64,000 bases of DNA from Mycoavidus cysteinexigens. Its GTDB lineage: Bacteria > Pseudomonadota > Gammaproteobacteria > Burkholderiales > Burkholderiaceae. Below the pieces are notes generated by a model, which worked only from the letters and a program-made list of their open reading frames with translations, ran no database searches and had not been told where the DNA came from. Within the stretch, counting starts at the first letter, position 1. Every line of letters starts with the position of its first letter. Both the position numbers and the translations under genes were made by a program. The stretch is taken from contig JASSUB010000007.1 of assembly GCA_031963205.1 (NCBI GenBank), positions 808 to 64,807 of the forward strand, written 5' to 3'. This document shows positions 18,129 through 39,980 of the stretch, in pieces.

Positions 18129-18794
18129 TTAACAATATTTCTTATAATACTTAGCCATGGTCCATACCAGCAAGGCGCAAAAGCTCACGACAGGTAAAAA
18201 CAAAATCTCAAACGGGAGTTTGACTGGCGCCACCAACCACCCAATTGCCGCCAGTGGCAACAAGCCAAATTTTAGCCAACGCTTCGCCCGATGATAACGA
18301 GTGGCTGACTCATGGCCGCCGTTTTCTCGGCGAATCACTCGCGCGACCAAGCCATCGATCAGAGCCACGCCGATAATCAGGCCAAACTTAGGCGCCACCA
18401 GGATCAGCAACGCAAGCCGTACACCGAATAACTGCAGAGCATACATGGCAATCAAAATAGGCTCGCGCAAATTGCTCAAGGATAAATTTCGATACTCTGC
18501 CACCGGCGACTGTATCGCAAGTTCAATCCTATTCCAGCCAAACCAACACCAATAAGCCCAGCCAGCAGCGTGTTGAGCTAACTCTAAATTGGTACACTGC
18601 GCTAAATAATAGTGCAGCAAAGCCTGCATCGCCGCAATCGAGTCCGCGCGCCAACTGTAGTACCCTGCAAGCCAACAAGCCAACACCGCGAGCACTGAAA
18701 TAACGACGATCCACAGCAGCAGATTAAGGGTTGCTCGCAGCACCCAAAAAAACTCTCGTAGGCTCTCGTCATCCGCTTGAGATTTAGAGCGCAT
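18129..18794 (-). CDS. ICE membrane protein, DUF4400/PFL_4697-like
   Basis: N-terminal TM, LFGVRLALLIL, ALIDGLVARVIRRENGGHESATRYHRAK (cf. DGLVRRDLRRFGAGRES); sits downstream of traD as in PFGI-1 ICEs. Confidence 0.85.
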   Translation of the reverse strand: MRSKSQADDESLREFFWVLRATLNLLLWIVVISVLAVLACWLAGYYSWRADSIAAMQALLHYYLAQCTNLELAQHAAGWAYWCWFGWNRIELAIQSPVAEYRNLSLSNLREPILIAMYALQLFGVRLALLILVAPKFGLIIGVALIDGLVARVIRRENGGHESATRYHRAKRWLKFGLLPLAAIGWLVAPVKLPFEILFLPVVSFCALLVWTMAKYYKKYC

Positions 18795-20757
18795 CACGTG
18801 GTCCTGAGGTGCGCTCACGCAGCGCCTCAAACACTGCTTCTAAAACCCACTGCTGGCTCGCCTGGTCATGTTCTTCCGTGACCAAAGGTAAACGCAATTT
18901 AACCAATTGCCCGCCATCGATTAAAGCAAATGCCTGCCCTTTGGGCAATTGCGTTAAATCTGCTGGCTGCAGCATCGGGACCTCGCGGGCAGTCCAGGTG
19001 TCTTGGGTGGCGGCGGAGAAATCTGCAAATTCTCCCGGCTCATCCATGTCACGCGTACTCGAGCCGGTACTGCGCGACCAGATTTCAACGGTAGGCAACT
19101 GCTCAATCAAAATAGCTGCTGTGCTAGGATTTTTTACCCGCAGCATGATTAACGTGTTGAAGTTGCCAAACATCTGTTGGGCTTTTGCTCTAGAACCGAT
19201 TTTTGCTTCAAGATCTGCATCCGTTTGAGTTAATGCGGTGACACGTAGGCCAGTCCCTCCCGCCTTGTTAAGCAGCGGAATAAATTCATCGCCGCACAGT
19301 TCATTAAATTCATCGGCATATAGACTCACATCACGCCGCCTACCAGAGCGGGTTTGGCCAAAGCCCGTGCCGTATTTATACATACGCCCGGCGGTGGAGG
19401 TAAGATCCGCAAACATGGCATTGCCCACTGCTGCTGCGACTTCAAAGTCAGACAGCGCATCTAAACCAATATACACAATCTCGCCTTGGTCAATCACCTG
19501 CGGCCAATCAAAAATGGCGCGCGGATCATGCGGGTTATCGTATTGGGGAGAAAGAAGCTCAGAAATTTTACCTGTGGTGAGTTTTTCTAGAAGCGGATAT
19601 AACGACGAAACCAATTTTTCAAAGTAACTGCGATCATTGGCTAATATGGATGAGAGCGCATCGGCAATTGGATCATGCCAGCCCTGCTCTTTAATCAGCG
19701 CAAGCATTTGCAATGCAGATAATGCACGGCCCGTTTTACGAGCCTGTTCTTGTAGCGATTTACCCGGCTCTTTGATTTTTTCTCGCCAAACCGGGTGCGC
19801 CTGATTCAGCCAAAATTCAAAATACTGAATACATAAATCGTCGATATTAACCGCGTGCTGATAGACTAACTCATAGGTCGGTTTCATGCCCAATGCGGAT
19901 AGTGCGCGCGCCATAACATTCACAAAACGCCAGACAAATTCCTTGAACACCGCACTTTGGCCTGCGCTTGGCAGTTGGTTGCTCACCCGCGTGGCAACCT
20001 CGGTAACCCTTGAAAAAGTGCTGATCGGGCTATAGCGTGCAGAAGACTCTGGATACCCTAAATGAAACACGTAAAATAGATCTTCGCGCTGGGCTCGTTT
20101 AGCTTCAGTGTACATCCGCAACAGTAAATCCACGTCACCTTTAGGATCGAAGACAATCACCACATCGCCACGTCGAATATCCTGGCTGACCTGAATCTCC
20201 ACATAGCGAGTTTTACCCACTCTGGTGGTACCGAGCACTAAGGTATGGCCGACCCGCTCACGCAGATCCGTATAAATGTCGCGCTCATGCACTTCGACAC
20301 CATGTAGCGCTGGTTCACCACCGGCTGGCGGCAAACGCGAAACGACAGGTCGCAGGCCCCCTATGCGTATGAACTTGCTCAACCAAGCACTAAAATACTG
20401 ACGCTCATCACCCGCACATAAATGCCGGTTTTGGGGCAATCTAGCCCAATACAGCCGCTGTGTATGCTCTGCTGTCCAGCGAAAACCTCGTCCAAGAAAT
20501 TGTTCTTGAGTGGAAACTGGAATATCTCGTGCCTCTATTTCATAACTTGGCAAGCGTCTTAAGTTGCGTTGAAAGCGAATAATACAGCTTGCCTGATAAG
20601 CTCTAATGAATGCTAACAACAGCATGCTCAGCGTAAAAATTAAACCTAATCTCGGCGTCACTAGAAATGTTTTATGCCAAAACCACATGCTGCCGCAAGC
20701 AATCAGTGCTGAGATAGAGGAAACCAACTCGACCGGTTTACGGAACAGATTGTTCAT
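18784..20757 (-). CDS. traD: Type IV coupling protein TraD (PFGI-1/SXT class)
   Basis: FLGRGFRWTAEHTQRL, Walker A GHTLVLGTTRVGKT, VFDPKGD, YYDRITSSL-like YFEKLVSSL, Walker B ADEFNEL..DEFIPLLNKAGG. Confidence 0.93.
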   Translation of the reverse strand: MNNLFRKPVELVSSISALIACGSMWFWHKTFLVTPRLGLIFTLSMLLLAFIRAYQASCIIRFQRNLRRLPSYEIEARDIPVSTQEQFLGRGFRWTAEHTQRLYWARLPQNRHLCAGDERQYFSAWLSKFIRIGGLRPVVSRLPPAGGEPALHGVEVHERDIYTDLRERVGHTLVLGTTRVGKTRYVEIQVSQDIRRGDVVIVFDPKGDVDLLLRMYTEAKRAQREDLFYVFHLGYPESSARYSPISTFSRVTEVATRVSNQLPSAGQSAVFKEFVWRFVNVMARALSALGMKPTYELVYQHAVNIDDLCIQYFEFWLNQAHPVWREKIKEPGKSLQEQARKTGRALSALQMLALIKEQGWHDPIADALSSILANDRSYFEKLVSSLYPLLEKLTTGKISELLSPQYDNPHDPRAIFDWPQVIDQGEIVYIGLDALSDFEVAAAVGNAMFADLTSTAGRMYKYGTGFGQTRSGRRRDVSLYADEFNELCGDEFIPLLNKAGGTGLRVTALTQTDADLEAKIGSRAKAQQMFGNFNTLIMLRVKNPSTAAILIEQLPTVEIWSRSTGSSTRDMDEPGEFADFSAATQDTWTAREVPMLQPADLTQLPKGQAFALIDGGQLVKLRLPLVTEEHDQASQQWVLEAVFEALRERTSGPRDAL

Positions 20758-20788: not shown

Positions 20789-21814
20789 CTAGTCCGCCTG
20801 CGGGCGGCTAGGCCATAAGCTCAGAGCACTATCCTGCGCCTCAAGGTAGGCAGGAAAAGCCAGCTGCGTTTCGGTTGAGGCTTCGGTTGAGGCTTCGGTT
20901 GAGGCTTCGGTTGAGGCTTCGGTTAAGGCTTCGGTTGCAGATGAATTGGATACTCCCTCAGACACAGGCGTCACTAATCCAGTCTTGGCCCTAGCTGCTT
21001 GGCCAGCACGCGCCGCGATGCGGGCCATGGGGTTACTTTGAGATTCACGACTCAACGCGTCGAACAACTCATTCAGCACCGGCGGATGTTCACCTAACCA
21101 AGCTAACACTGGCCGCGGAATGAACCATTGTAGAAAAATCAAGGCTAACTGGCCCGTTTGACGATAATCTAAGCACTGCGATGACGGATCAGGCTGAACC
21201 GGCTCGAAGGTATACCACGCACCGCCTTGCTCGCGCATCGTGCCGCCGAGCACGATCCAGGGCCTGCGTTGGCCCCCTTGGGCATCGCAGATCTCCACCC
21301 CCAAAGCCGCCAAGCCTTGCGCCACTCCTTGTAGCACAGCCATCGCCAGCACCGCATAGCTGTAACGGGCAGCTAAGCGCGCTTGCTCTTCAGCACCGCC
21401 ACCCACTGGCAGGGCATAGGCATTTCGATAATGCAACGCATCTCGAGCAAGCGACATGATATGCATAAACAAACTACGGTTCTGGCTCGGCTGGGCGGTT
21501 AGCGTAGTGGGCAATAATTGCACAAATTCACCGCAGCACTGTAACAACGGCTCAACGTCGCGGCTGAAATTTTCTGGCGTAAAAGCCAGGTGCTGACGAA
21601 GCCTATCCAATACGTGGCGTGCGCCGGTACGCTCGATTAATTCCTCATATGGCAGTATCGGCAGATGACGTGTGCTTGGTGCTTGGGTGGTTGCGCTAGC
21701 CATCACCGGTAAGCGGCGCCTTAAAGGCTCACCATAACGCACCCCACAAACAGCCAGCCCGCACCCCACGGCCAGCCCGTATAACCAATCATGTTCAAAC
21801 CAAGCGAGCAGCAT
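20789..21814 (-). CDS. TraI_2/MOBH relaxase-like protein, catalytically degenerate and C-terminally truncated
   Basis: Fold landmarks FVQLLP, ALHYRNAYALPVGGGAEEQARLAARYSYAVL and WIVLGG...Y match MOBH. PASExHHH is replaced by PTTLTAQP and HDxGK by QGVAQ. N-terminal hydrophobic segment; upstream of traD. Confidence 0.75.
   Translation of the reverse strand: MLLAWFEHDWLYGLAVGCGLAVCGVRYGEPLRRRLPVMASATTQAPSTRHLPILPYEELIERTGARHVLDRLRQHLAFTPENFSRDVEPLLQCCGEFVQLLPTTLTAQPSQNRSLFMHIMSLARDALHYRNAYALPVGGGAEEQARLAARYSYAVLAMAVLQGVAQGLAALGVEICDAQGGQRRPWIVLGGTMREQGGAWYTFEPVQPDPSSQCLDYRQTGQLALIFLQWFIPRPVLAWLGEHPPVLNELFDALSRESQSNPMARIAARAGQAARAKTGLVTPVSEGVSNSSATEALTEASTEASTEASTEASTETQLAFPAYLEAQDSALSLWPSRPQAD
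20870..20937. repeat. 12-bp tandem repeat TTCGGTTGAGGC (4 perfect, 1 with one mismatch, 1 partial) encoding EAST repeats
   Basis: Read directly; translates on the minus strand as TEALTEASTEASTEASTEASTE in the relaxase-like tail. Confidence 0.95.
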
Positions 21815-22245
21815 AGCCAGTCCGTATCGATTGCAGCGCAGTGAAAAATATCACTTTAAGCAAAAAGCCGGCTCGGCCGAAAATTTGAGTGCACGCACTG
21901 CCATCACGTCGTGCACCCAACTACATGACAAAGCTACTTTATGCTATTAAACTGTAAAGTTTTATTGCTTTCTCTTAATCATTTTTGCTTTATTAAAAAA
22001 ACCTTTATTCTTATTCAATCGAATTCAAAAAAATATCTAACTTATTGTTTTATATTAATTTTTAAACAAGTAAAAATTATATTTTTCCATTCAATTTATT
22101 ACTGTTAATTATTAAAATAAAAATAAACCTCATAAAATGACTGCGCAGTGTACCCACACATCGTGCAAGCAAATTACAGACAGCCGCCAATACATTTTCT
22201 AAAGTATGTCTTGTCGGTCGCTTCCTCTTGCGCCGACAGGTCTTT

Positions 22246-22281
22246 CCCGCCAGGTGTGATCCCCCCCTGGCGGGGTTTTTT
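22246..22281 (+). terminator. Intrinsic terminator-like hairpin in the virB11 leader
   Basis: Stem CCCGCCAGG/CCTGGCGGG followed by GTTTTTT, ending 15 nt before ATG 22297. Confidence 0.7.
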
Positions 22282-22296
22282 CTCAACCTCAAAAAA

Positions 22297-23385
22297 ATGC
22301 AAGACATGGATAAGTCCACCGCCACCATGGCCAAGCAGGTTCTAGATGAGCATTTACGGCCCATTCGCCCGCTGCTAGATGATCTCGAGGTGCAAGAAGT
22401 GATGATCAATCGCCATGACAATATTTGGTTTGAACGCAACGGCAAGATGATGTATTTGGCCGACATACAACTGGCTCAAGCGAGTCTTGAAGCATCGATT
22501 ACCTTACTCGCCAATTTAAATGGTAAGCCCGATGCATTGATTATGGATTGTCAGTTACCTGGTTTGCGCATCGCCAGCGCACGCCGGCCAGTGACCATCC
22601 ACGGTCCAATGCTCTGTGTCCGAAAGCATATGGCACACCACCTTAGCTTGCCAAATTATGTGGCGAGTGGCGCGTTTAATACCTTGCCGCACCCCCCCCA
22701 GAACTCGCCTCAAGATGCTCCCCTGACGACCTCCCCCAGTGCGTCTCTATGCCAGGCCATGCAAACCGGCGGCCAAGCCTTGCAACAGTTTTTTGAGTGG
22801 GCCATTCATTCCCGCCAAAATCTGATTGTCTGCGGTTCGACTTCATCAGGTAAAACAACGCTGCTGAATGCATTAATTGAAGTGATTCCTAACGACGACC
22901 GACTGATCACTATCGAGGACACTCGCGAACTCCAAGTACGCGCCCCTAATTACGTATCGTTTGAAGCCCACCCGGCCCGAGGCGTCAATCTGCGCGAGCT
23001 GGTCCGACTGTCCCTACGTTGCCGGCCGACACGCATCATCGTAGGTGAAATCCGCGGCGCGGAGGCCTTTGACCTGATGGATGCACTCAATACGGGCCAC
23101 CCTGGCTCAGTCGTTTCATTTCATGCTAACTCTGCCGAATTAGCCCTCACGCGCCTTGAATCATTAATCCGCATGGCGCCTGAAGCCCAAAACTGGCCTT
23201 TGGCCGATCTGCGTCAGCAGATCGCCGCCACTTTCCGCTATGTGGTGCAAGCACAGCGTATCGGTTCTCTACGAGGTCCTTGGGAGATTCGAGAAATCCT
23301 CGGCGTTGCTGGCAAGCGCTATCAAACCCGTTTGCTATTTTCCAAAATCCGACAAGCAGCAACGGCTTATGACACTGTTCAATAA
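22297..23385 (+). CDS. virB11: VirB11/TrbB-family traffic ATPase
   Basis: QEVMINRHDNIWFER, Walker A GSTSSGKTT, TIEDTREL, Walker B IIVGEIRGAEA, His box TGHPG..SFHA. Start chosen after the leader hairpin and is uncertain. Confidence 0.9.
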   Translation: MQDMDKSTATMAKQVLDEHLRPIRPLLDDLEVQEVMINRHDNIWFERNGKMMYLADIQLAQASLEASITLLANLNGKPDALIMDCQLPGLRIASARRPVTIHGPMLCVRKHMAHHLSLPNYVASGAFNTLPHPPQNSPQDAPLTTSPSASLCQAMQTGGQALQQFFEWAIHSRQNLIVCGSTSSGKTTLLNALIEVIPNDDRLITIEDTRELQVRAPNYVSFEAHPARGVNLRELVRLSLRCRPTRIIVGEIRGAEAFDLMDALNTGHPGSVVSFHANSAELALTRLESLIRMAPEAQNWPLADLRQQIAATFRYVVQAQRIGSLRGPWEIREILGVAGKRYQTRLLFSKIRQAATAYDTVQ

Positions 23386-23686
23386 GCTCAAATTTGGAGT
23401 ACACATGACAATATTTATCTGGCTGTTATGCACCTGGTCATCTTATGCTTATGCAGGCATCTGGGGCGGCGGTTTGTGCCGATTTTATAAACAGGTCGTC
23501 GATGACGAATTGATCGCCTTTGTGAGCATCGGTTCATGCGCGCTCGCCATTATTTTATGGATGCTAGATGACAAATCGTCCGCCATTAAATTATGGATTC
23601 TGCGGATCGTGGCGGCAACGCTCATGATCTTCAATCTCCCCATTTTCTGGACGACCATCTTTGGTCGCTCGCCAGTCTGTGGTTAA
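23369..23686 (+). CDS. virB2: VirB2/TrbC-family pilin
   Basis: Signal-like segment ending SYAYA followed by two hydrophobic helices; between virB11 and virB3. Confidence 0.75.
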   Translation: MTLFNKLKFGVHMTIFIWLLCTWSSYAYAGIWGGGLCRFYKQVVDDELIAFVSIGSCALAIILWMLDDKSSAIKLWILRIVAATLMIFNLPIFWTTIFGRSPVCG

Positions 23687-23711
23687 ACCAAAAAATAGCG
23701 CAAGAGCATGT

Positions 23712-24035
23712 ATGTCTAGCCCACCTCCTCCCCTTCATGCCCCAGTCAAAAAAGTGCTGATTGAGCGTAAGCGCTTACTGGCGGTGGACCAGCGCATACT
23801 AGTGGTGCTGCTGGTGAGCGTATTTGTGGTGGCGGCCACTTTGCACAATTATTGGGTTTTGCTCGCTGCCCTGCCAGGTTACGGCGGCATGTGGCTCGCC
23901 AGCCGACGAGACCCTGATCTACTTGATATCTACCTCAAATACCGACACCAAGCAGGCCATTACGAGCCCCGTCAACAACTCCGGCAAACACGCCATCAGC
24001 GTCCATTAGGCTTTGCTCGCAAACACCTATGTTAA
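23712..24035 (+). CDS. virB3: VirB3/TrbD-family membrane protein
   Basis: LIERKRLLAVDQR, two TM segments, RRDPDLLDIYLKY; overlaps the virB4 start. Confidence 0.82.
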   Translation: MSSPPPPLHAPVKKVLIERKRLLAVDQRILVVLLVSVFVVAATLHNYWVLLAALPGYGGMWLASRRDPDLLDIYLKYRHQAGHYEPRQQLRQTRHQRPLGFARKHLC

Positions 24036-26662
24036 ACCTTAAACACCCCGGCACCAGCCCTTTTGAGCATGAATCACTGACCGCCATCGGCCAGCGCCAT
24101 AACGCAGGGGTACGCACGTGCGCCGAACTCGTGCCGTGGCTTTTTGCTTGCAATCAGCAGACTCTAGTCTGTAAAGATTCTTCCTTGCTCGCGGCCTTCG
24201 AGTATAGCGGTCCAGATACTGACAGCATCACGGCTGGCAGTATGCTCAAATTAATTGAAGATTTAACGCAATCTCTAGTGAGTCTATGCCATCAACCGAT
24301 CACTCTCTGGTGGACTGTCTATCGCCGGCAAATCAGCGGCTATGACACGCTACCGCTACCAGACCTGTACGCTCAGATAGTTGACGACGAACGGCGGCGC
24401 GCCTTTGAACAAAGCGGTAGTTACCTAAACCACCACTATCTGACCATCACCCAGCCACCTGAGGTAGGCCTAGACCGCTTCTCCGGCAAACTCTCCCATG
24501 CTTTATCGCACGATGGCCTACCGCTTTACAAAGCGCTCTGGCAAGCGGTGCGCGGCACCTTCTCCGACCAGTACGCATTTGCCTATACTGCTGATGAGTT
24601 AGACCATCAAGTAGAGGACTTTGAAGCATTATTAAGCGCCTTGCTGGCTGGCCTGCCCAACCTCAAGTGTACGCGCTTAAGCGGCGATCGACTTGGCGCT
24701 TTCTTGCACGCCGCTTGTTCACCCTGTGCCGAAGATAAAACCACCGCGGGCATCTCCGATCACCCCTTTCTGGATGTCGCACTACCCGATACGGAAGTGA
24801 TCCCCGGCCACGATTTTTTGTCTTTTGAGGGCAATGGCTGCAAACGTTACGCGTTGGCGCTCAGCGTCCCGGTCGCTCGCGAGAACTGGCCCGACCAGGT
24901 CGCACCCACGACCCTTGACGACTTACTCAAGATTAATGGGGAACTCACCCTCAGCCATGTTTTCCGCCTCGCCAGCCGAGCTCGGGCAGAACGTTTTATC
25001 GATAGTATGCGCAAATATCACGATAACCGACGGCTAGATATACGTGGACTGCTCAGTGCGGCCTTAAAAAAAGGCGACACCGAAAAAGTCGGGCAGAACC
25101 GAGCGCGGGCCCAAGCCGCAAATGAGGCAGAGACCCTGCGCGGCGAGGTGTCAATGAGCCAAGAAGCATACGGCTGGTACAACCTCACGATTCTTGCCTG
25201 GTCACCGGTATTTGCAGCCGGTGGGCCTGATGTTGCGCAGGCCACAAGCGCCGCGCACTCTGCTTACACGCAAGCAAGCGCCACCTGTAAAGCCGCCGAA
25301 GAAATCATGCGCGCCGCCCATTTTATGCCGGTGCGCGAAAAACTTCATGCCCTGTCAGCTTTTACCGTGACCATTCCCGGCATGTGGAGTGAGTGCGCCC
25401 GCTGGGCCTTTATTGATGCCCAGGTACTCGCGCGGCTTGCGCCCCTATGCACGGTCGCCCAAGGCGAACGCTATAACCCACACCTGAGCCAGGAAATGGG
25501 CATTGATTGCCCTGCCTTAGCGACCTTTCCAACCGAATACGGCACCCCTTTTCATTTCACCGGCTACTTTCATGATGTCGGACATGTGCTGCTATGTGGC
25601 GACTCCGGCTCCGGCAAAACTGCGTTTCTCAATCTGAGTTGGACGCTTTTTCGCAAATATCCAGGGGCCATGATTTACTTATTCGACAAAGATTATTCCT
25701 CCCGCATTCCGGTGCTGATGCAAGGGGGGACTTATCTAGATATCCAGCCCGAAAACGAGCATAGTGCCCGCTTCAATCCAGTCGCCTTGCTAGCGCATGA
25801 ACGTCACTTTGAATGGCTCAAAGACTGGATTCTATTTTTAGGCAGCTTACGCGGCTATACCCCTAATGCTCAAGATGACGCGCAACTCGTCAACGCCCTC
25901 CGTGCAACGCACCATATCGATCGCAAACTTTGGCAACTGCACGCGATTTATAGTCAGCTGCCCGATGGGTCCTTCAAACAACAACTGGCGGCGTGGGTAG
26001 GGAGTGGCGTTTACGCTCATTATTTCGACAATCTGGAAGACAGCTTTGCCAGCACCAGCATTATGGGTATTGAGTTAGGCAAGATTATCCACAATTCACT
26101 GGTGGCCCCAGCGCTGCTCGATTTATGCTTTTATCAGATTGACGATACGCTCACCAGAAACCGGCTAAATGGCAAAATCGCCCCGACCTTTATCGGCTTG
26201 CCAGAAGTATGGCACCTGCTTGATAACCCGCGCTTTGCCAACAAAATCGTAGATTGGGTCAGCACCTTGCGCAAAAAGCTCGGCTGCGTCTGGATGGATA
26301 CGCAGTCTCCCGAAAGCTACCTTAATTCACCGGTTTATCCAAGCCTGCGTGACAATGTGCCGACCTGCATTTTCTTGCCGCCTAGCGGCAACCTCGCCCC
26401 TTCGCAACGCGAGGCACTAGAAACTGGCTTCGGTTTACATGCGGGTCAAATCCACGGCATCGAAAAAGGCACGCGCAAACGCGATTATTTCATTACTCAA
26501 AAAAACGGCTTTGCGCGGCGCCTCTCGCTTACCTTGGATCGCAGGACACTTGCCATACTACGCAGCGAACTGAGTGCACAAGCGATTTTCGAGCGCCACT
26601 ACCGCTCCGGCCACGCCGCTTGGCAAGCGCGTTACTTTGAAGAAATGACCCATGTTAGCTAA
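24029..26662 (+). CDS. virB4: VirB4/TrbE ATPase
   Basis: KDSSLLAAFEYSGPD, DVGHVLLCGDSGSGKT (Walker A), FDKDYSS, TLRKK. Walker B reads FIGLPEVW. Confidence 0.9.
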   Translation: MLNLKHPGTSPFEHESLTAIGQRHNAGVRTCAELVPWLFACNQQTLVCKDSSLLAAFEYSGPDTDSITAGSMLKLIEDLTQSLVSLCHQPITLWWTVYRRQISGYDTLPLPDLYAQIVDDERRRAFEQSGSYLNHHYLTITQPPEVGLDRFSGKLSHALSHDGLPLYKALWQAVRGTFSDQYAFAYTADELDHQVEDFEALLSALLAGLPNLKCTRLSGDRLGAFLHAACSPCAEDKTTAGISDHPFLDVALPDTEVIPGHDFLSFEGNGCKRYALALSVPVARENWPDQVAPTTLDDLLKINGELTLSHVFRLASRARAERFIDSMRKYHDNRRLDIRGLLSAALKKGDTEKVGQNRARAQAANEAETLRGEVSMSQEAYGWYNLTILAWSPVFAAGGPDVAQATSAAHSAYTQASATCKAAEEIMRAAHFMPVREKLHALSAFTVTIPGMWSECARWAFIDAQVLARLAPLCTVAQGERYNPHLSQEMGIDCPALATFPTEYGTPFHFTGYFHDVGHVLLCGDSGSGKTAFLNLSWTLFRKYPGAMIYLFDKDYSSRIPVLMQGGTYLDIQPENEHSARFNPVALLAHERHFEWLKDWILFLGSLRGYTPNAQDDAQLVNALRATHHIDRKLWQLHAIYSQLPDGSFKQQLAAWVGSGVYAHYFDNLEDSFASTSIMGIELGKIIHNSLVAPALLDLCFYQIDDTLTRNRLNGKIAPTFIGLPEVWHLLDNPRFANKIVDWVSTLRKKLGCVWMDTQSPESYLNSPVYPSLRDNVPTCIFLPPSGNLAPSQREALETGFGLHAGQIHGIEKGTRKRDYFITQKNGFARRLSLTLDRRTLAILRSELSAQAIFERHYRSGHAAWQARYFEEMTHVS

Positions 26663-27467
26663 GCTGCATAAGCATTCTTGGCACACGCTTTGGTGCCTCA
26701 TCGGACTCTGCTTGGTTACGCCTACCCTAGCAGGCGGTGGCGTAGGAACGCCCATCGGCGGCGCCACCGAATTAACGCAGATCATGAATCACGCCGAGTT
26801 GCTAACCAGCGTCAGCCAACAAAGCACCATGGTCGCCCAAAATATCACCGCACACATTACGCGCGCACAGCAATATATGGCGATGCTGCAAAATCTTGCG
26901 CAACTGCCGGCCCATGTTTTAGAACAAATTATGGCGCCCTGGCAACATCAGTTGCAAGCGTTTATGCAACTTGCCCATTCAGTTGACGCACTATTAGACG
27001 CCACCCAGCAAACAGGCGCTTTATTTAAGCGCAGCCTAAGCGAAATCACGCAGCTTAACCTAGCCCCCCAACAATGGCTATCAGCCTATAGCAATTTAGC
27101 TAAAAACCGAGACAGCCTGTATCAGCAACAATGGCAACAGGATCTAGTCGCCCTCGATACGCTCGCGAATCGCGCACGCAGTGTCCACAGTCTATCGAGT
27201 CAAATTCCAGGTATCGGGAGCACCATCCAAGGCCTGCAGCTTCTCAACCAGCAAGCCTCGATCCTAGCTGCTGAAATGCTCGAATTACGTGCTTTGATGC
27301 AGCGCCAGATGGCTCTGCAAACGCAAGATCGGTTGGAACAAGAATGGGCGAACAGCGCCCTCTTCGATCTGCTCCGGGCACGTCAAGCGCACGCACAGCA
27401 ACTCGATACGCACGAGCGCCAACTGATCAACCACGGCCCATTCAATGTCTTACAAGATCAACCATAG
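26652..27467 (+). CDS. trbJ: TrbJ/VirB5-like protein
   Basis: Signal peptide, IGGATELTQIMNHAEL (TrbJ 'GGATEWTQLANN'-like), Q-rich helical body, GTIQGLQLLNQ. Confidence 0.8.
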   Translation: MLAKLHKHSWHTLWCLIGLCLVTPTLAGGGVGTPIGGATELTQIMNHAELLTSVSQQSTMVAQNITAHITRAQQYMAMLQNLAQLPAHVLEQIMAPWQHQLQAFMQLAHSVDALLDATQQTGALFKRSLSEITQLNLAPQQWLSAYSNLAKNRDSLYQQQWQQDLVALDTLANRARSVHSLSSQIPGIGSTIQGLQLLNQQASILAAEMLELRALMQRQMALQTQDRLEQEWANSALFDLLRARQAHAQQLDTHERQLINHGPFNVLQDQP

Positions 27468-27486
27468 GTCATTGAGGAGACGCACC

Positions 27487-27765
27487 ATGCCCTTATTTTT
27501 GCGCTGCTTAGCCCATCGACTCTGCCACAACCGACATGAAATTTTTCAGTTGCAGCGCGCTTATCAGCGCTATGCGAGGGCTCCGCAGCAGGCAACTCCA
27601 GATCATTTGCGTACCCCACAGGAGTTCGCTAAACCGCGTTTGTCGCTGGCTTGGGCTTGCTGCCGCTTAACTCTAGAACAGCCCACAGTATTGCCTGCTG
27701 GCATGTTAGCGCTCGCTGGCCTGCTTTTTTTCATCGTCTTGCATCTCATTGCGAACATAGGATAG
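27487..27765 (+). CDS. Small hypothetical protein with C-terminal TM helix
   Basis: GAGGAG RBS before ATG 27487; fills the trbJ-virB6 gap; C-terminus MLALAGLLFFIVLHLIANIG. Confidence 0.5.
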   Translation: MPLFLRCLAHRLCHNRHEIFQLQRAYQRYARAPQQATPDHLRTPQEFAKPRLSLAWACCRLTLEQPTVLPAGMLALAGLLFFIVLHLIANIG

Positions 27766-27769
27766 CTCG

Positions 27770-28789
27770 ATGAATGCGAACGATCCAGTGGCCATTGTTA
27801 ACGAACTCTTTCTGCTTATGCAGAAAATTGGACTTGGGCTATACGGAAAATTCATCGGTGAAGGGATTGAATTGCTATTCGTGCTGGGCCTGATCATGGC
27901 GACTTGGCATACCTTGATGTGGATGCTAGCCGACTCTACGGTCGACTATTTCATTAACCAATTGAGTTTGCTGGTTAAAGTTGCCATCATTTTATTGATG
28001 CTCACTGGCTGGACCGACACCGTGCGCGATTTCTTGGTCGGCAATATGGAGCGAACCATCCAGCAGATTAGTGCACATAGTACGGATCCAGTCGAGACGG
28101 TGCGCACCCTATGGAGTGCCGCCCAGACGATTTTCTCGCTCACCCGCGCCAACGCGGCGAGTGTCTGCGAGGAATTACCCAAGCTCGCCGACGATGGCGC
28201 ACCGTTGCCTGGCACCCAAACAACCTGCCACCTCAGCCACGGCAAGAACCATCAAAGCGGCTGGATCGATACCTTACGCAATTTATCGTTTGTATTACTG
28301 TCATTTGTCTTTAAAGTCATTGCGGTGCTAGCGATTGCCCAAATGGCGATTGCCTTCATGCTCGTCGCTCAAATGTCTTCTTTCTTGCTCGCCATTGGCT
28401 TTTGCCTGGGGCCCATTCTACTGCCCTGGTACCTCTTGCCAGCCACTGAGTTTCTATTTAACGGCTGGCTACGATTCATCATTGTCGCCGGTTTATACAA
28501 AGTAGTCGCTTGGCTGATGCTCACCATGGTCCAAGCTGGGATCACGCCAGCCACGCAGAAATTAGTTCTGCAATTGAGTGGTAGCGTGAATAGTCATATC
28601 AGTTCAACACTAGATTTTAATTGCCTCACCCTGCTTGGACTTGCTTTCACCTGTAGCGTAGGGGCTTGCATGATGTGGCAAGTCCCCCACATTGCCCAAG
28701 GAATTGTTTCAGGCCATAGCGCTCTTACTCTGCGCGGCTTTGGCAACAGCACGATTGCTGGGCATTTGCGTAGCAACAGCAAGCGCTAA
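27770..28789 (+). CDS. virB6: VirB6/TrbL inner-membrane protein
   Basis: Polytopic; LLAIGFCLGPILLPWYLLPATEFLFNGWLRF; MWQVPHIAQGI. Confidence 0.88.
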   Translation: MNANDPVAIVNELFLLMQKIGLGLYGKFIGEGIELLFVLGLIMATWHTLMWMLADSTVDYFINQLSLLVKVAIILLMLTGWTDTVRDFLVGNMERTIQQISAHSTDPVETVRTLWSAAQTIFSLTRANAASVCEELPKLADDGAPLPGTQTTCHLSHGKNHQSGWIDTLRNLSFVLLSFVFKVIAVLAIAQMAIAFMLVAQMSSFLLAIGFCLGPILLPWYLLPATEFLFNGWLRFIIVAGLYKVVAWLMLTMVQAGITPATQKLVLQLSGSVNSHISSTLDFNCLTLLGLAFTCSVGACMMWQVPHIAQGIVSGHSALTLRGFGNSTIAGHLRSNSKR

Positions 28790-28809
28790 ATAGCCAGAGA
28801 CTGACCACC

Positions 28810-29541
28810 ATGTCATTTTTAAAACGCCCGCCGCCAACAGAAAATTCACCGCCTCCTGGCACAACGCTAGAAGCCATCAATACCTGGTTTGCTTATTTTC
28901 AGAAGCCACTCCTGAATGCCCGATGGGCGCGCCTGGCAGCAGCCGGATTTTTCACGCTCGCCATGATTGAAGCGATAGCGCTGATCCAACTCCTCAAAAG
29001 CGCGGGTCCGCAGCCTTATTTTATCGAGCATGATGAACACTCTGGAGCGGTCTATTTATCCTCTCGGGTGGCGCAGCAATTTACGCCAAGCACCGCCAAC
29101 ATCACCTATTTTTTGCGTATTTGGGCAACCCATATGCTCTCGATCAAACCAGATCCAAGGCAAACCCAAGAACATGACATCCCAGCGGCAGCAGCTTGGA
29201 CTATCGGCGCAGCAGCTCAGGCATTTACCGAATATTTCGAACAGACTGACCGGATTGCCGAACGCATCGCCAAGCACCCCGGCCTAACGCGTGAAGTCGT
29301 CGAAAATTCAACCTCCTATGCGGCTGACGGTAAAGTGGCCTATATGGTCTTCACCCTGATTGAGCGCCTCAATGGCATCGAGACACAGCGTACACAAAAA
29401 ATATTAACCGCCAATTTCATTCTGGCTCCCGAACGCTTTGACGAACAGCAGCGTCGAACTAACCCGATTGGCCTAGGCGTGACTCACTTTACGCTCAGCC
29501 CCTATTACGGCCCCACTTCTCCAACCCATGCTGCATCATGA
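28810..29541 (+). CDS. virB8: VirB8/TrbF
   Basis: Single TM then PQPYFIEHD, C-terminal RTNPIGLGVTHF. Confidence 0.85.
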   Translation: MSFLKRPPPTENSPPPGTTLEAINTWFAYFQKPLLNARWARLAAAGFFTLAMIEAIALIQLLKSAGPQPYFIEHDEHSGAVYLSSRVAQQFTPSTANITYFLRIWATHMLSIKPDPRQTQEHDIPAAAAWTIGAAAQAFTEYFEQTDRIAERIAKHPGLTREVVENSTSYAADGKVAYMVFTLIERLNGIETQRTQKILTANFILAPERFDEQQRRTNPIGLGVTHFTLSPYYGPTSPTHAAS

Positions 29542-30461
29542 AATTGCTCCGTCGTGACTGGCTACAGCTAAATCAGCTTGGTACCGCGTTCTTCACGGTT
29601 CTGCTCCTCGGCACAGCGCAAGCCGCAAAGCTCAACCCGCCTGCCCCTAAGCCAGCGCCTGCGATGATGCACGCTGAACCCACCGCGCTTGACCCCAAGT
29701 TGGTCGTGTATACCTATGATCCAGATTACACTTATCCGATTTTGACGCAAATCGGGCGGCTGACGCATCTTGAATTTGAAGAAGACGAATTAATCATCGG
29801 CATTTATTTGGCTGACCCCAAAAGCTGGTATCGTAAAACCGCCGTCACGCGACGTGATTTTTTTATTCAACCAAAACTAGCGGGGCTTACCAATACAGCG
29901 ACCATCATCACCAACAAACGCCGTTATGAATTGATGCTAACACCCGCCGCCAATCAATACTACCAGCGGGTATCTTGGCAACATAACGACAGCGATCACC
30001 TAGATGGATTTATTCCTGAGGTCACGGGTAACTCAGAGAGCACCCCTACGCCACCAACCAAATCCTCGCCCACCCCGTCGTCTCAGCAGAGCAAAAGCCG
30101 CAAGCCTGATCAAGCAAGCGCTCATCTACCGATAGACCTCGCCCACGCCAACTTTGACTATACCGTCAAAGGCAAAACGCCATTCAAGCCCATCGCGGTC
30201 TTTGACGATAGCCGCTTCACTTGGCTAAAAATGCCCCCGATTCAGGAAATCCCAGCCATCTTAATCCTCGCCCAAGATGGCACAACTGAACTGGCTAACT
30301 TCATGGTCCAAGGCGATTATTTTGTCATCCGGCAAATACTTGACCATGGCGCTTTGCTCAAACTCGGCAAGGACGAAGTCCGAATCTATAATAACCAAAG
30401 CCAGAACTGCGGTTTTTGGGGTTGCTCGAAGCAAGCATTCACTAATCTGTGGGAACACTAA
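29538..30461 (+). CDS. virB9: VirB9/TrbG outer-membrane core protein
   Basis: Signal peptide, YTYDPDYTYPI, TNTATIITNKRRY, NFDYTVKG...PIAVFDDSRFTWLKM. Confidence 0.9.
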   Translation: MKLLRRDWLQLNQLGTAFFTVLLLGTAQAAKLNPPAPKPAPAMMHAEPTALDPKLVVYTYDPDYTYPILTQIGRLTHLEFEEDELIIGIYLADPKSWYRKTAVTRRDFFIQPKLAGLTNTATIITNKRRYELMLTPAANQYYQRVSWQHNDSDHLDGFIPEVTGNSESTPTPPTKSSPTPSSQQSKSRKPDQASAHLPIDLAHANFDYTVKGKTPFKPIAVFDDSRFTWLKMPPIQEIPAILILAQDGTTELANFMVQGDYFVIRQILDHGALLKLGKDEVRIYNNQSQNCGFWGCSKQAFTNLWEH

Positions 30462-31760
30462 ATGGCACCTACTCCCCGGTCAAGGCCAACTGCACCGCGC
30501 ACCAAACGTAATATGGTCCAAGTCTTACTCACGGTATTCTTGGTTTCTATGTTGGCGATCGTGCTCGCACGCCGCTTCAGCGGTGCGGCTCAAACACCGA
30601 CACCACGAGAGGCGATCGAGCGTAACACTGAATATAGGGAGCAAGCAGCTGGGCACGCCGCGGATATCCGCTTAGCCCTACGGCAACAAGCCGCACACGC
30701 CCAGCAATTGACCCAGCAAGAAAAGGCCAAAACGCCAAGCGAGCCAGCCACGCCTCTCACCATAGCACCGCCTCTACCGCCTGAATACAGCAAATTGTTG
30801 ACTACCAGCCGTCCTTTGGGACAATTAAGCGATGAACAAAAGCTCTCGCTCGAGCGCGCCAAAGCAACGCTCAATGATGACACTGAGATGGCGGTCTATG
30901 AGATCGAAGATCGTCGTGCGTTAGAAAACCATCTAGGCACTCACACCGGTGACAAGCTATATCTGCCTAATCTCACACCATTACCGATCGCCACGGCAAC
31001 AGCGCCTACCGATCCGCACCCTCACACCACTCTACAGCACCTGATAAGCCAACCCAACACCTCTTTCCCAGCGGTCAGTCATGATCAACGTTGGTTGCAA
31101 CGCCAAAGTGAGTACACCAGTAGCCAACCTCTTTTCCCTACGGTCAGCAGCTCACCCTATCTATTAATGATGGGCGAACCCATCCCCGCCGTCACCCTCC
31201 AAAAAATCAACAGCGACTTGCCAGGGACCGTACGCGCAATGGTCACGCGCGATATGTATGACAGCATTCGCGGCCACTTCAAAGTGATTCCCCGCGGGAC
31301 AATTTTAATCGGCCTGAGTAACGCCGATGTCTCAGTCGGTCAAAACCGCCTGCTGATTGCCTTTAACCGCATCAACTTCCCAAGCGGAGCGTATCTAGAT
31401 ATTAGCGGCGTCCCCGCCACCGAACGGAGCGGGGACGCCGGCTTAGACGCCCATGTGAATAACCATTTCTTGCGCCAATTCGGCCAGGCGTTTTTAGTGG
31501 CAGGGATTGCCAGTTGGGCCGGCCGCCAGCAATCTGCACCGCCTAATATGACCATCAACCTCACGGGTACAACCTTGCCTTCAACATTTTCACAAGCCGC
31601 CGCGCAAACACTTTCAGAGGTCGTGCGGCGCATGCTAGACCGTCACCAAAACATTAAGCCTACGCTCACTTTGCCAGCTGGCGAAAAAATCACCATTATC
31701 GTTGCGCGCGATATGGTGCTGCCTCCTGCTGTGGTCTCAAATTACGAGAGTACTCTATGA
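30462..31760 (+). CDS. virB10: VirB10/TrbI
   Basis: TM plus Pro-rich linker, IPAVTLQKINSDLPG, IPRGTILIG, RLLIAFNRI, VNNHFLRQFG, NIKPTLTLPAG. Confidence 0.92.
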   Translation: MAPTPRSRPTAPRTKRNMVQVLLTVFLVSMLAIVLARRFSGAAQTPTPREAIERNTEYREQAAGHAADIRLALRQQAAHAQQLTQQEKAKTPSEPATPLTIAPPLPPEYSKLLTTSRPLGQLSDEQKLSLERAKATLNDDTEMAVYEIEDRRALENHLGTHTGDKLYLPNLTPLPIATATAPTDPHPHTTLQHLISQPNTSFPAVSHDQRWLQRQSEYTSSQPLFPTVSSSPYLLMMGEPIPAVTLQKINSDLPGTVRAMVTRDMYDSIRGHFKVIPRGTILIGLSNADVSVGQNRLLIAFNRINFPSGAYLDISGVPATERSGDAGLDAHVNNHFLRQFGQAFLVAGIASWAGRQQSAPPNMTINLTGTTLPSTFSQAAAQTLSEVVRRMLDRHQNIKPTLTLPAGEKITIIVARDMVLPPAVVSNYESTL

Positions 31761-32608
31761 AGCATGCACCCACCCGGCTCTTGATTATGCCTGCACTGCT
31801 CAGCTTATTGTGCGGTTCAAGCGAAATACTCTACGCCTCTGACTTTGTTCAAGCACCTAGGCCTAACTTTGTTCAAGCACCGAAGTCTAACTTTGTGCAA
31901 GAACTTAGGCCCCCAGCCACTGTGCCTCAAATAATCTCACCCCAAACGCACACGCCTACGACGTATCACTTTGACTGGCATATATCAGGGGCGCCAGAAG
32001 TCGCACCAATCCAAGTCTTCGATAACGGTCATAAGTTGTATGTACAGTTTCGCGCCGGCTCACCTACACCGGCGATTTTGGCCGAAAAGTCTGACGGACA
32101 GGTTCTGCTTAACTGGCAAGCAGAACCGCCCTATATTGTGCTCAACCAAGTTGCATCACGCTTGCATTTTCGTCTCGGTAAGCAACTCGCGCAGGCCTGG
32201 CGCAAACCTTCCAAACAGCAAAGCGCCACCGCTTGGCCTGCAAAAATAGTAAAAACGGTCTCGCCGAATGTACTATTTCTGCCCGCAGCCCCGCAAAAAA
32301 TACCCCCAACAATACAACCGGCGCAGAAAAAACCAGCCCCCACCCAGTGGCAAGTCAAACGCGCTGATGAGAATTTACGGCAACTGCTGACACGCTGGGC
32401 ACAGATTGATAATTGGCATTTAGTCTGGGATGTAGACCATGACATCCCAATTCAAGCCGAGGATCAAAGCCAAGGCAATTTCAAAGAAGCCGTACGCCGC
32501 GTGTTGGGCGCCACAGCCTTAACCGAATACCAGGTTAAGCCATGCTTCTATACGAACCGTGTCGTGCGCGTGGTGCGTCAAACGACCGTCTGCAACCCGC
32601 ACCAATAA
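31757..32608 (+). CDS. pilL: PilL-like protein: VirB9/TrbG C-terminal domain fused to a TcpQ domain
   Basis: HFDWHISG..APIQVFDNGHKLYVQF parallels the VirB9 CTD of 29538-30461; C-terminal WQVK...LRQLLTRWAQ..WHLVWD...FKEAVRRV..CFYTNRVVRV is TcpQ/PilL-like. Confidence 0.75.
   Translation: MKHAPTRLLIMPALLSLLCGSSEILYASDFVQAPRPNFVQAPKSNFVQELRPPATVPQIISPQTHTPTTYHFDWHISGAPEVAPIQVFDNGHKLYVQFRAGSPTPAILAEKSDGQVLLNWQAEPPYIVLNQVASRLHFRLGKQLAQAWRKPSKQQSATAWPAKIVKTVSPNVLFLPAAPQKIPPTIQPAQKKPAPTQWQVKRADENLRQLLTRWAQIDNWHLVWDVDHDIPIQAEDQSQGNFKEAVRRVLGATALTEYQVKPCFYTNRVVRVVRQTTVCNPHQ
31838..31912 (+). repeat. Three imperfect 24-bp repeats (DFVQAPRP/NFVQAPKS/NFVQELRP)
   Basis: ACTTTGT(T/G)CAAG recurs at 31842, 31866 and 31890. 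Confidence 0.85.
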
Positions 32609-32624
32609 GCTTGCCAAAGCCGCT

Positions 32625-34370: not shown

Positions 34371-35677
34371 TGCGCATTATTGAGATCGACGGCAAACACC
34401 TGGCTTTTGGCTTGCGCTGGAAGCCCCTGATCAGCGCTCAAGAATCTTACGAGTCGCTGGCTCGAACCGAAGCGGATAAGCTCAATGCAAGCCTGATCTG
34501 GCAAGATGGGAAAACACCGCTGCTCGGCGCTTATCACGGCATACTGGCCACTCAGCTTAACCATCAACCCATTTATGCGGCCGCGCATATGCTAGCGGCC
34601 ATACCCGGTTGCGGGCCAAACGTATTATTAGCCCTCAGCGACCCAACAGGGATGCATTCACTATGCGGGATTTTCCAAGGCCGACCGTGGGGAAGTGCCA
34701 GTGCAAGCGGCAAAAATTTCGATCAAGTCGGGCTATCTAACGAAGAGTTAATGCACCTTATCGGACAGTTTGCCGAATTATGCGGCAACGATGACTATAC
34801 GCTACTCGGAAATATAACGCTCGCCGAGTGCAATCCATTTACATTAACTGAGCTAGCGCACTTTGCCAGCCCGGCTTCCCGCATGTATCAGCCGCGTCGC
34901 AGAGTATGGCGCAGCTTTATAGTATGGCTGCTGATGGGGATTTGCGTCGCCACTGTCTGCTATGCACTTTACGCATACTGGGGGAACAAACGTAGCGCCA
35001 CTGCAGCCCCCAAATTATCCTTTGAACAGCAATATGAACAGTCAATCAATGCCCGCAACCAGCCACTGCTGAATGCCCCTGCAGTGGTCACCGCCTGGTT
35101 CAAATGGGCGACAGCACTGCCGCTGACAATTGGCGGCTGGCACCTAAAAAGTATCGACTGTACGGTACAATCGTCTCCCTCAAGATGCTTGCTGAATTAT
35201 GAGCGCACACTGCCGCAAGCCACGCAACAGACTTTTGTGGCAGCGACAGTGCATGACTGGGCCGAGCACATCGAGGCGGTTGACGACAAATGCCTACAGG
35301 TCAATTTGGCTATGCCCAGCGTTGCGACAATGAGCCTCCGGCACGCTCTGCCTAACTTGCCAAACGAGCGTGAAATCCGCTTAAATTTCATTTCACAGTT
35401 ACAGCGCATGCAACAAATCGCCCATACCAAGCTTGAGGATTTTCAGGTGTATGGCAGACCCGCGGGCGTACCCGCCATGGCGATTCCCCATCCAATTAAA
35501 CACGCAGCGTGGGAAGTCAACGGACCATTGCACATGATGGCTTTGTTTGAAGCATTTCCAGCCATCAGCAGTGTCACTCGGCTCGCCCTCACCATTAAAG
35601 ACCCTCAGCCAGTGACTTCACTCAAAGCATCGAGCTTGATGTTACACGTTAAAGGAGAGATTTATGCCCGCGATTAA
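34370..35677 (+). CDS. pilO: Type IVb pilus accessory protein PilO2
   Basis: LAFGLRWKPL N-terminus, central TM, GGWHLKSIDC; position between pilN and pilP. Confidence 0.8.
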   Translation: MRIIEIDGKHLAFGLRWKPLISAQESYESLARTEADKLNASLIWQDGKTPLLGAYHGILATQLNHQPIYAAAHMLAAIPGCGPNVLLALSDPTGMHSLCGIFQGRPWGSASASGKNFDQVGLSNEELMHLIGQFAELCGNDDYTLLGNITLAECNPFTLTELAHFASPASRMYQPRRRVWRSFIVWLLMGICVATVCYALYAYWGNKRSATAAPKLSFEQQYEQSINARNQPLLNAPAVVTAWFKWATALPLTIGGWHLKSIDCTVQSSPSRCLLNYERTLPQATQQTFVAATVHDWAEHIEAVDDKCLQVNLAMPSVATMSLRHALPNLPNEREIRLNFISQLQRMQQIAHTKLEDFQVYGRPAGVPAMAIPHPIKHAAWEVNGPLHMMALFEAFPAISSVTRLALTIKDPQPVTSLKASSLMLHVKGEIYARD

Positions 35678-36221: not shown

Positions 36222-36260
36222 ACCACGCCGCCACGAGGCCTTCAGCAAAAGTAGCTGCCC

Positions 36261-39957: not shown

Positions 39958-39980
39958 CCGTACTCACGCCGAGAAGCCCC

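Follow-up and report, generated by a model that had tools for sequence, protein, structure and literature searches.

In a stretch of 64,000 nucleotides (nt) from Mycoavidus cysteinexigens (GenBank assembly GCA_031963205.1, contig JASSUB010000007.1, positions 808 to 64,807 of the forward strand; the whole stretch is referred to as the window), a shortened traI gene was identified at 20789..21814 on the minus strand. The gene product, traI-short, is a pseudo-relaxase of 341 amino acids (aa) with a TraI_2 domain; its HD-like core is catalytically dead and lies between an N-terminal helix and a disordered tail. Its assignment is based on the open reading frame (ORF), Pfam and NCBIfam matches, intact orthologues and the results of AlphaFold and Foldseek. 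Judged by its sequence relationships, traI-short is an independent loss in a descendant of a motif-intact MobH relaxase from the integrative and conjugative elements (ICEs) of Burkholderiales. The explanation favored here, tentatively and with somewhat less than an even chance of being correct, is that the relaxase of a fixed ICE may have become a non-catalytic structural or docking partner of TraD-DtrJ, in a type IV secretion system (T4SS) that would have been repurposed.

Domain layout and catalytic residues of traI-short

The initial annotation, which was made from the sequence alone, described a MOBH relaxase with an open frame of 341 codons that had lost both metal-binding motifs. The open frame was confirmed, and the MOBH descent is borne out by profile matches, by the relatives and by a fold match. 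In the comparison with TraI_2 profile models that had been proposed as a check, Pfam TraI_2 (PF07514) was matched at aa 59-277 with 57.2 bits (gathering score 23.9). The match to NCBIfam MobH (NF041494) reached 97.9 bits (cutoff 200) and covered model positions 2-221 of 340, and the match to TIGR03760 (PFGI-1 class) reached 74.3 bits (cutoff 161.4). Thus, traI-short fails both NCBIfam relaxase equivalog cutoffs yet passes the Pfam TraI_2 threshold. Full-length relatives match NF041494 with 330-342 bits across positions 3-340.

The AlphaFold model of traI-short, calculated from a 116-sequence alignment, has a mean predicted local distance difference test value (pLDDT) of 80.5 and a predicted template modeling score of 0.74. 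The TraI_2/HD-like core (aa 45-284; 20963..21682, minus strand) is predicted with a pLDDT mostly above 90 for residues ~45-280, disorder was found from residue 285 on, and residues 9-26 form a helix of low confidence. The structure comparison proposed for the protein alone revealed similarity to the TraI_2 fold, since the sole significant Foldseek match in the PDB was 3KQ5, the TraI_2 domain of a Coxiella protein (E 9.9e-8, 222 columns, 17% identity), which is the fold match supporting the core. Matches to the HD enzymes PDE4B, SAMHD1 and BT4208 were non-significant (E >2), and traI-short does not qualify as an HD-domain phosphohydrolase, its H..HD..D signature residues being gone. A phmmer search with traI-short alone gave nothing at E <= 10 among the PDB chains, and 3KQ5 was reached only by profile search or fold search. 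The core is 47% identical to residues 42-275 of the metagenomic relative P0205.

The hydrophobic N-terminal helix (aa 9-26, DWLYGLAVGCGLAVCGVR; 21737..21790, minus strand) is followed by RRR and could be recognized in the AlphaFold model, by hydropathy (Kyte-Doolittle mean of 1.49 over 17 residues) and in the relatives. The hydrophobic segment noted in the initial annotation is therefore real, but it is not an acquisition, since it is also present in full-length catalytic relatives, namely in P0205 (MTLFSSDWPFLAVAAGAAGALWFLRR), P0196, P0199 and P0020. The helix comes from the full-length relaxases and probably tethers the protein to the membrane. The equivalent helix of gonococcal TraI associates with the membrane (PMC6736028).

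For the analysis of the catalytic motifs, an alignment of 165 relatives was compiled from an exhaustive phmmer search and two profile searches. The 105 motif-intact relatives read PAS-ESHHHAxPGGLxxH and LLHDIGKP, with the HHH being 100% conserved, where traI-short reads PTT-LTAQPSQNRSLFMH and VLQGVAQG. In the degenerate alternative-3H block (aa 103-118, TTLTAQPSQNRSLFMH; 21461..21508, minus strand) the S, the E, the HHH and the GG are replaced, and only the last histidine of the block, H118, is kept. The degenerate HD motif (aa 161-166; 21317..21334, minus strand) reads LQGVAQ instead of LHDIGK. All four Mycoavidus proteins carry (T/A)T(L/Q)TAQ(P/L)... and VLQ(G/E)VAQ at these sites, and the initially described loss of the HHH and HD motifs is confirmed by the alignment. 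Beyond the motifs described initially, a conserved histidine (T220 in traI-short) and a conserved aspartate (G271) were found to be lost further downstream. The replacements at the HD metal ligands in Mycoavidus are H162Q, D163G/E, K166Q, H220T/A and D271G/S, and the first histidine, H118, is retained.

Conservation of at least 85% in the motif-intact class is reached by 41 columns. Mycoavidus deviates in 18 of them, 15 of which lie within or beside the published catalytic motifs. Replaced are S104, E105, H107-109, G113-114, H162, D163, G165, K166, H220, D271 and S274. Mycoavidus keeps 22 structural columns, including Q99, P102, L115, A126, R130, P136 and E142 as well as W186, G191, Y201, P233, L250 and L254. 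The fold residues FVQLLP, ALHYRNAYALP.GG.AEEQ and YSYAV, which had been described as kept, indeed belong to conserved columns. The 55 other degenerate relatives show losses at the same catalytic columns, too, with the structural columns conserved. As judged from the alignment, this pattern of substitutions is far from chance, and the proposed targeted loss of catalytic residues with retention of the fold agrees with both the column analysis and the AlphaFold model.

The C-terminal change had been described as the replacement of a domain by a short EAST-repeat tail. A repeat of 12 nt was confirmed, but the change was found to consist of two deletions with a linker motif kept between them. One deletion comprises the second relaxase subdomain (MobH model positions 222-340, approximately one third of the relaxase domain) and most of the linker, and the other comprises TraI_2_C. 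For TraI_2_C (PF07515), neither a Pfam match in traI-short nor a tblastn remnant anywhere in the window was found. This domain is common, although not universal, in MOBH1 and MOBH2 relaxases. What remains in Mycoavidus are the N-terminal two-fifths of TraI.

The tandem repeat (20870-20937, minus strand; Tandem Repeats Finder) has 5.7 copies of the 12-nt unit and encodes (TEAS)n in the disordered tail, between the core and the linker motif. Its copy number is polymorphic among strains but always in frame, with orthologues of 327, 337 and 341 aa. Changes in repeat length of 48, 48 and 42 nt were found in the runs X1, X3, X6 and X22. In addition, the stop codon has lost 1 nt in contigs of further strains and in P0001, which lengthens the protein by two residues. 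The retained linker motif PAYLEAQDSALSLW (YLEAQDSAL; 20813..20854, minus strand) is identical in all orthologues and homologous to (F/Y)LD(D/E)x(D/E)SA, which is located approximately 50 aa upstream of TraI_2_C in full-length relaxases. With a position-specific scoring matrix (PSSM) derived from 75 full-length relatives, PAYLEAQDSALSLW reached 13.5 bits, compared to a best null score of 6.5 among 71,406 14-mers (corrected p <1e-3).

The prototype of the MOBH relaxases, TraI from the gonococcal genetic island carried by Neisseria gonorrhoeae, resembles traI-short in its HD-like TraI_2 fold, its membrane helix and the neighboring traD, but differs in having 850 aa and in cleaving single-stranded DNA (ssDNA) of the origin of transfer (oriT) with Mn2+ or Co2+ via its 3H and HD motifs (PMC6736028). 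Mn2+ binding by this protein depends on D162 and D267, and its cleavage activity on both motifs (PMC6736028). Ten of the 12 motif and metal residues named in that study are replaced in traI-short (equivalents of S103, E104, H106-108, H161, D162, K165, H215 and D267), the equivalence being derived from column conservation and spacing, as the gonococcal sequence itself is outside the alignment. Present are H118 and Y217, the equivalents of gonococcal H117 and Y212. Neither the S-E-x-H-H-H motif nor the H...HD..K...H...D ligands of the catalytic MOBH1 and MOBH2 classes were found. On account of these residue losses, a site-specific, metal-dependent cleavage of oriT ssDNA by traI-short is predicted to be absent.

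A protein that is still active as a relaxase or nuclease by means of non-canonical residues would be in line with the retained H118 and Y217, with the retention of an oriT-like inverted repeat next to the gene and with the gonococcal motif mutants, which secreted DNA in vivo (PMC6736028). The statement of the initial annotation that MOBH relaxases require HHH and HD applies to in-vitro cleavage, but mutation of these motifs did not abolish gonococcal DNA secretion and the MOBH3 clade lacks both motifs (PMC6736028). However, both Mn2+-binding aspartates, the HD histidine, the HHH triad and the H215 equivalent are all lost, a third of the relaxase domain is deleted, the integrase and an accessory ORF are absent, and the locus has a fixed place in the chromosome and is inherited vertically. 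An active enzyme is thus considered highly improbable.

Descent from motif-intact relaxases

The best relatives outside of Mycoavidus (38-47% identity) are MobH relaxases of 650-800 aa, all of which carry SESHHH, HDIGK and TraI_2_C. The hosts of the closest MobH relatives belong to Trinickia, Paraburkholderia, Burkholderia, Achromobacter and Pandoraea. Over the TraI_2 core, traI-short is 40-47% identical to WP_107153572.1 of Trinickia symbiotica (P0020) and to the metagenomic proteins P0205 and P0202. The Burkholderiales relaxases share with traI-short the N-terminal helix, the linker motif, a virB11 gene divergent from traI-traD-dtrJ and a VirB-like T4SS, but differ in their length of ~700 aa, the intact SESHHH and HDIGK motifs, the match to the full MobH model and the presence of TraI_2_C. 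The same gene order with a full-length TraI was found in Trinickia (L006) and in the metagenomic loci L008 and L009.

In a neighbor-joining tree, calculated without the catalytic columns, Mycoavidus is nested on a long branch within the motif-intact clade, far from the motif-less clade; the sequence of 3KQ5 itself is absent from this tree. Since the closest relatives are motif-intact and have the same synteny, the data argue for an independent loss and not for membership in MOBH3. The latter clade lacks both motifs, an alternative function has been suggested for it, and the solved structures 3KQ5 and 2IPQ belong there (PMC6736028). MOBH3 proteins (3KQ5 of Coxiella burnetii and STY4665 of Salmonella, 2IPQ) share with traI-short the TraI_2 fold without both motifs. 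An affiliation of traI-short with 3KQ5 or 2IPQ was not found, and the placement in MOBH3 was rejected because of the tree position and the motif-intact nearest relatives. Moreover, 3KQ5 differs by an identity of 17% in the structural alignment and by a profile match that reaches a TraI_2_C-like region, which is absent from traI-short.

Motif-less TraI_2 proteins are not new, since the MOBH3 clade already lacks both motifs. Proteins of this type have been recognized since the MOB classification, and only one MOBH relaxase has been characterized biochemically. The Mycoavidus case adds an independent and comparatively recent inactivation, which is useful rather than startling as such proteins are known.

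Compared with the relatives (L006, L008 and L009), Mycoavidus lacks an ORF of 153-160 aa that overlaps the traI start and the gene of an SLT lytic transglycosylase. The integrase that flanks dtrJ in L008 is gone as well, as is the longer TraD tail of the Burkholderiales MobH loci. A tblastn analysis of the window revealed no remnant of the C-terminal half of TraI, the SLT gene, the upstream ORF or the integrase, and no tRNA gene, integrase or second relaxase was found in the window.

Between Mycoavidus and the free-living relatives, the TraI_2 domain has diverged 1.92 times as far as it has among these relatives. For TraD, DtrJ, VirB11, VirB4, VirB3, VirB6, VirB8 and a 271-aa ORF, the same ratio is between 1.01 and 1.25. 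The change of regime is therefore gene-specific, and a general acceleration of endosymbiont rates as the cause of the long branch was ruled out by the relative rates of these eight neighboring proteins.

A large, separate clade of short (276-340 aa), motif-less metagenomic proteins with TraI_2 only (P0004-P0012 and P0179) was found, which is apparently undescribed. These proteins resemble traI-short in that the MobH model is matched to approximately position 220 and the disordered tail ends just past an aromatic-Leu-acidic motif, and they share the order TraI_2-TraD-DtrJ (L007, L010, L011 and L012). They differ in their low identity (25-33%), the F-like T4SS neighbors (TraL, TraE and TraK) and the lack of an N-terminal hydrophobic helix. 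Furthermore, they keep a histidine at the HD position (HE or HH) and have a basic C-terminus (PAPRRRKAR) within the conserved sequence FLDPVDDPxPAPRRRKAR. As their tail motif scores weakly with the Burkholderiales PSSM, the parallel is suggestive but not proven.

It may be speculated that MOBH relaxases gave rise, more than once, to dead, membrane-associated pseudo-relaxases consisting of a TraI_2 core and an acidic linker motif, which would be dedicated subunits or adaptors of TraD-DtrJ coupling complexes, a generalization that we regard as doubtful. If it were true, such proteins would be a mark of conjugative T4SSs that turn into non-conjugative secretion machines, a change that they would perhaps enable, and Mycoavidus would be a young and datable instance with motif-intact relatives at hand for comparison.

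Selection on traI-short and its proposed role at the coupling protein

Orthologues of traI-short with 85-94% identity were found in Mycoavidus sp. SF9855 (complete chromosome CP102085) and in two metagenome-assembled genomes of M. cysteinexigens. The synteny is identical across Mycoavidus and comprises the T4SS genes, the short TraI, TraD, DtrJ, a RES/Xre toxin-antitoxin pair and a LysR regulator, continuing into the housekeeping genes lptFG, pepA, holC and ilvD. It follows that the locus resides on the chromosome and has been passed on vertically within the genus. Near-identity searches with the locus in plasmid and E. coli collections gave no match; a plasmid or E. coli origin was set aside, the locus being chromosomal Mycoavidus DNA.

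Four Mycoavidus assemblies have an intact copy of the gene, and the contigs of four further strains carry in-frame changes of the repeat and no frame-disrupting indel. The dN/dS ratios, determined pairwise by the Nei-Gojobori method, were 0.26-0.30 in three comparisons and 0.48 in the comparison with AD073. For the deepest pair, a ratio of 0.26 was obtained (95% confidence interval (CI) 0.17-0.39; neutrality p = 9e-9), and neutrality was also rejected for the shallow pair (p = 0.006). The lowest values of the protein were found in the tail (0.06-0.30). No new stop codon was observed, compared to 7-17 expected under neutrality from the synonymous tree length. These values support the retention of traI-short under purifying, though relaxed, selection rather than neutral decay. 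The same distinction had been drawn in the initial annotation from the absence of stops, and it withstood the comparison of sister strains proposed there: the substitutions are common to the four Mycoavidus orthologues, which are under purifying selection, and no frameshift was found in eight strains, yet the gene is about twice as relaxed as its neighbors.

Another explanation would be a slowly decaying, functionless relic of a dead ICE, in which the apparent constraint would result from linkage or from polar effects on traD expression. This is consistent with traI-short having the lowest conservation of all proteins in the locus (85-90% identity) and the highest omega (dN/dS) among the T4SS genes, with its long branch and the loss of large domains, with the accumulation of slightly deleterious changes in endosymbionts and with the CI of the core omega between the window and AD073, which includes 1. 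It is at odds with an omega significantly below 1 in every whole-gene comparison, with the missing stop codons, with length changes that, in eight strains, affect only the repeat and keep to multiples of three, and with substitutions that avoid structural columns. A polar requirement, moreover, would not protect the amino-acid sequence. On balance, a mere relic is judged quite unlikely. What decay looks like in this genome can be seen in the gene of a 2-hydroxycarboxylate transporter (2HCT; 56680-57980), which is split into ORFs of 151 aa (model positions 1-127) and 275 aa (model positions 142-414) and is likely a pseudogene, so this genome does accumulate disrupted ORFs.

The gene traD (18784..20757, minus strand) begins 31 nt downstream of traI-short. 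It encodes a type IV coupling protein of 657 aa with the Walker A motif GTTRVGKT (TIGR03754, 755 bits) and has a dN/dS of 0.12. No terminator was detected between traI-short and traD in a terminator scan, and the results of the promoter and terminator scan were otherwise at shuffle level. A DtrJ/TraJ-like membrane partner of the coupling protein (PF14348) is encoded at 18132..18794 on the minus strand, as supported by the domain match and by synteny. The short TraI thus adjoins a coupling protein of the TraD/TraG type and a TraJ/DtrJ partner. TraG-J-type coupling proteins act as membrane complexes and need the adjacent membrane partner (PMC7434980).

Mycoavidus TraD was found to lack a C-terminal tail of 35-70 aa (...EGKGAGF), which is present in the free-living relatives (696-726 aa); the 3' end of the gene is at 18784-18830. 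It also lacks a 9-aa insertion of the N-terminal region. The TraD proteins paired with other short motif-less TraI_2 proteins (L007 and L010) are likewise short at their C-terminal end.

In comparison with the relatives, the presumed DNA-processing equipment was shown to be removed in Mycoavidus: the active site is substituted, and domains of TraI, the upstream ORF, the SLT gene, the integrase and the TraD tail are lost. The predicted mating-channel genes, the TraD ATPase, DtrJ and the N-terminal portion of TraI, on the other hand, were shown by the same comparisons to be kept intact under purifying selection. TraI, TraD and DtrJ follow one another in the same order throughout Mycoavidus and in the independent short motif-less clade (L007, L010 and L012). 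From this synteny, the role as an adaptor or chaperone of the type IV coupling protein that had been suggested initially appears plausible.

A non-enzymatic role of traI-short is probable because the catalytic residues are nearly all gone, yet the gene is still under selection beside its secretion-system partners. A full-length, MOBH2-like MobH relaxase of a Burkholderiales ICE would have become fixed in the chromosome of the Mycoavidus ancestor, and its shortened descendant most likely no longer cuts DNA. The parts remaining would be a tethering helix, a folded HD-like core without a metal site, a flexible repeat spacer and the conserved acidic linker motif. With these, traI-short probably persists at the inner membrane as a docking or structural partner of the coupling complex that TraD and DtrJ form, and the T4SS may now serve something other than self-transfer of the element.

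Several observations weigh against this explanation. The contact of traI-short with TraD and DtrJ is putative, and the gene order would persist in any recently domesticated operon. The search for another relaxase able to use the T4SS was confined to the window, and a search of RNA runs gave no evidence of expression, with one run marked "rna?" being a genomic assembly. Motif loss is no absolute proof of lost DNA processing, since DNA secretion in vivo persisted in gonococcal mutants of the 3H and HD motifs (cited in PMC6736028). Between the window and AD073, the omega of traI-short was 0.48 compared to 0.19 for the pooled neighbors (Fisher p = 0.005), which is about twice as relaxed, and in this shallow comparison the omega of the core alone was 0.86 with a CI that includes 1.

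A second explanation takes traI-short as a translocated substrate. Relaxases are substrates of T4SSs; TrwC, MobA and VirD2 are translocated, and the secretion domain of the Bartonella Bep proteins derives from relaxases. The dead relaxase could accordingly be kept as cargo or effector of the T4SS, recruited by TraD and delivered, for example, into the fungal host or into neighboring cells; the linker motif would then be its signal for recruitment, and the TEAS repeat of variable length would provide a spacer. Known translocation of relaxases, the retention of an invariant linker motif in the part of the protein with the lowest dN/dS, the disordered tail with its polymorphic repeat number and the intact coupling protein and channel despite the lost DNA-processing functions are all compatible with such a substrate. 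Against it, the N-terminal membrane helix and RRR argue for a resident protein of the inner membrane and not for soluble cargo, and the C-terminus lacks the positive charge of VirB/D4-type signals, so that a translocated substrate is rated as unlikely. The BID secretion domain of the Bep proteins is a conceptual parallel in which parts of a relaxase were kept after repurposing of a T4SS (PMC6509941). It differs from traI-short in belonging to another relaxase family and in retaining a C-terminal signal domain rather than a dead core, with no sequence relationship.

The comparison with the relatives shows which parts of a MOBH relaxase selection keeps once catalysis is dispensable (membrane helix, HD-like core scaffold and short acidic linker motif) and which are discarded together (second relaxase subdomain, TraI_2_C, accessory ORF, integrase and TraD tail). 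It thereby gives candidate surfaces for the contact of MOBH relaxases with the coupling protein, and a view of the domestication of an ICE-borne T4SS in an obligate fungal endosymbiont.

Divergent intergenic region and neighboring gene clusters

The divergent intergenic region between traI-short and virB11 (21815..22305) is 491 nt in length and contains an oriT-like inverted repeat as well as a decayed second copy. In L008 and L009, two perfect 13-bp inverted repeats of the form AACTTCCTGCACG-N14-CGTGCAGGAAGTT were found, which are located at 9132-9173 and 9457-9496 in L008 and at equivalent sites in L009. The traI-proximal repeat is retained in Mycoavidus as TTGGGTGCACG-N14-CGTGCACTCAA (arms at 21885-21895 and 21910-21920) and is conserved in all four genomes, with the loop of 14 nt and the 5' flank CTTTGTCAYGTA being the same as in L008 and L009. 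Four of the five outer arm pairs are changed on both strands relative to these loci with the pairing preserved. The virB11-proximal copy is decayed in Mycoavidus (~22143-22166). A DNA-pattern scan for the repeat architecture gave mostly chance matches, among them one in Caballeronia with no TraI nearby, and the covariation argument therefore rests on L008 and L009 only. The intergenic divergence was 0.036-0.073, compared to 0.09-0.22 at the synonymous sites of the flanking genes.

The gonococcal locus likewise has its oriT in the divergent intergenic region beside traI, and this oriT contains an inverted repeat, which it requires 3' of nic (PMC6736028). By analogy, the retained inverted repeat of Mycoavidus is probably an ancestral oriT or a relaxosome binding site.

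At many regions where an oriT and promoters coincide, relaxosome proteins repress or organize the promoters. The dead relaxase could thus be a DNA-binding regulator that acts at the upstream inverted repeat as a repressor or organizer of the divergent traI/traD and virB promoters. The conservation of the traI-proximal repeat in four genomes with co-changed arm pairs and the same loop and 5' flank fits such a regulator, as does an intergenic divergence below the synonymous divergence of the flanking genes. However, two likely contributors to DNA recognition, the second subdomain of the relaxase and the accessory ORF upstream, are deleted, the second repeat copy is decayed and the repeat comparison is based on two relatives only. 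As a membrane-tethered repressor would be unusual as well, this function is considered improbable.

Just upstream of virB11, at 22246-22274, a perfect 9-bp hairpin (CCCGCCAGG...CCTGGCGGG) was found. L008 has a counterpart at the same place with other letters (CCCACCGGGTG...CACCCGGTGGG).

The VirB-like T4SS operon (22306..31760, plus strand) is divergent from traI-short. It comprises VirB11, B3, B4, TrbL/B6, B8, B9, B10 and small ORFs, and is intact and under purifying selection. Appended to it is a type IVb-pilus-like cluster (31757..42475, plus strand) with a TcpQ/CagX fusion, a secretin, a PilQ-like ATPase, T2SSF, a PilS-type pilin and other ORFs; four of the ORFs have no Pfam match. Past the pilus cluster, an AcaB-like gene (PF08900) and a DUF2857 gene, which are typical regulatory or core genes of ICEs, remain at 45035-47068.

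On the other side of the locus, the genes of a RES-domain toxin, an Xre-like antitoxin and a LysR regulator (16192-18105) are located between dtrJ and lptFG in all Mycoavidus loci. These genes may be what is left of an addiction module at the island's edge. The G+C content falls to 0.38-0.43 at 52000-60000, compared to ~0.52 in the rest of the window. An intact 2HCT paralogue of 474 aa is encoded within the island at 43476-44900.

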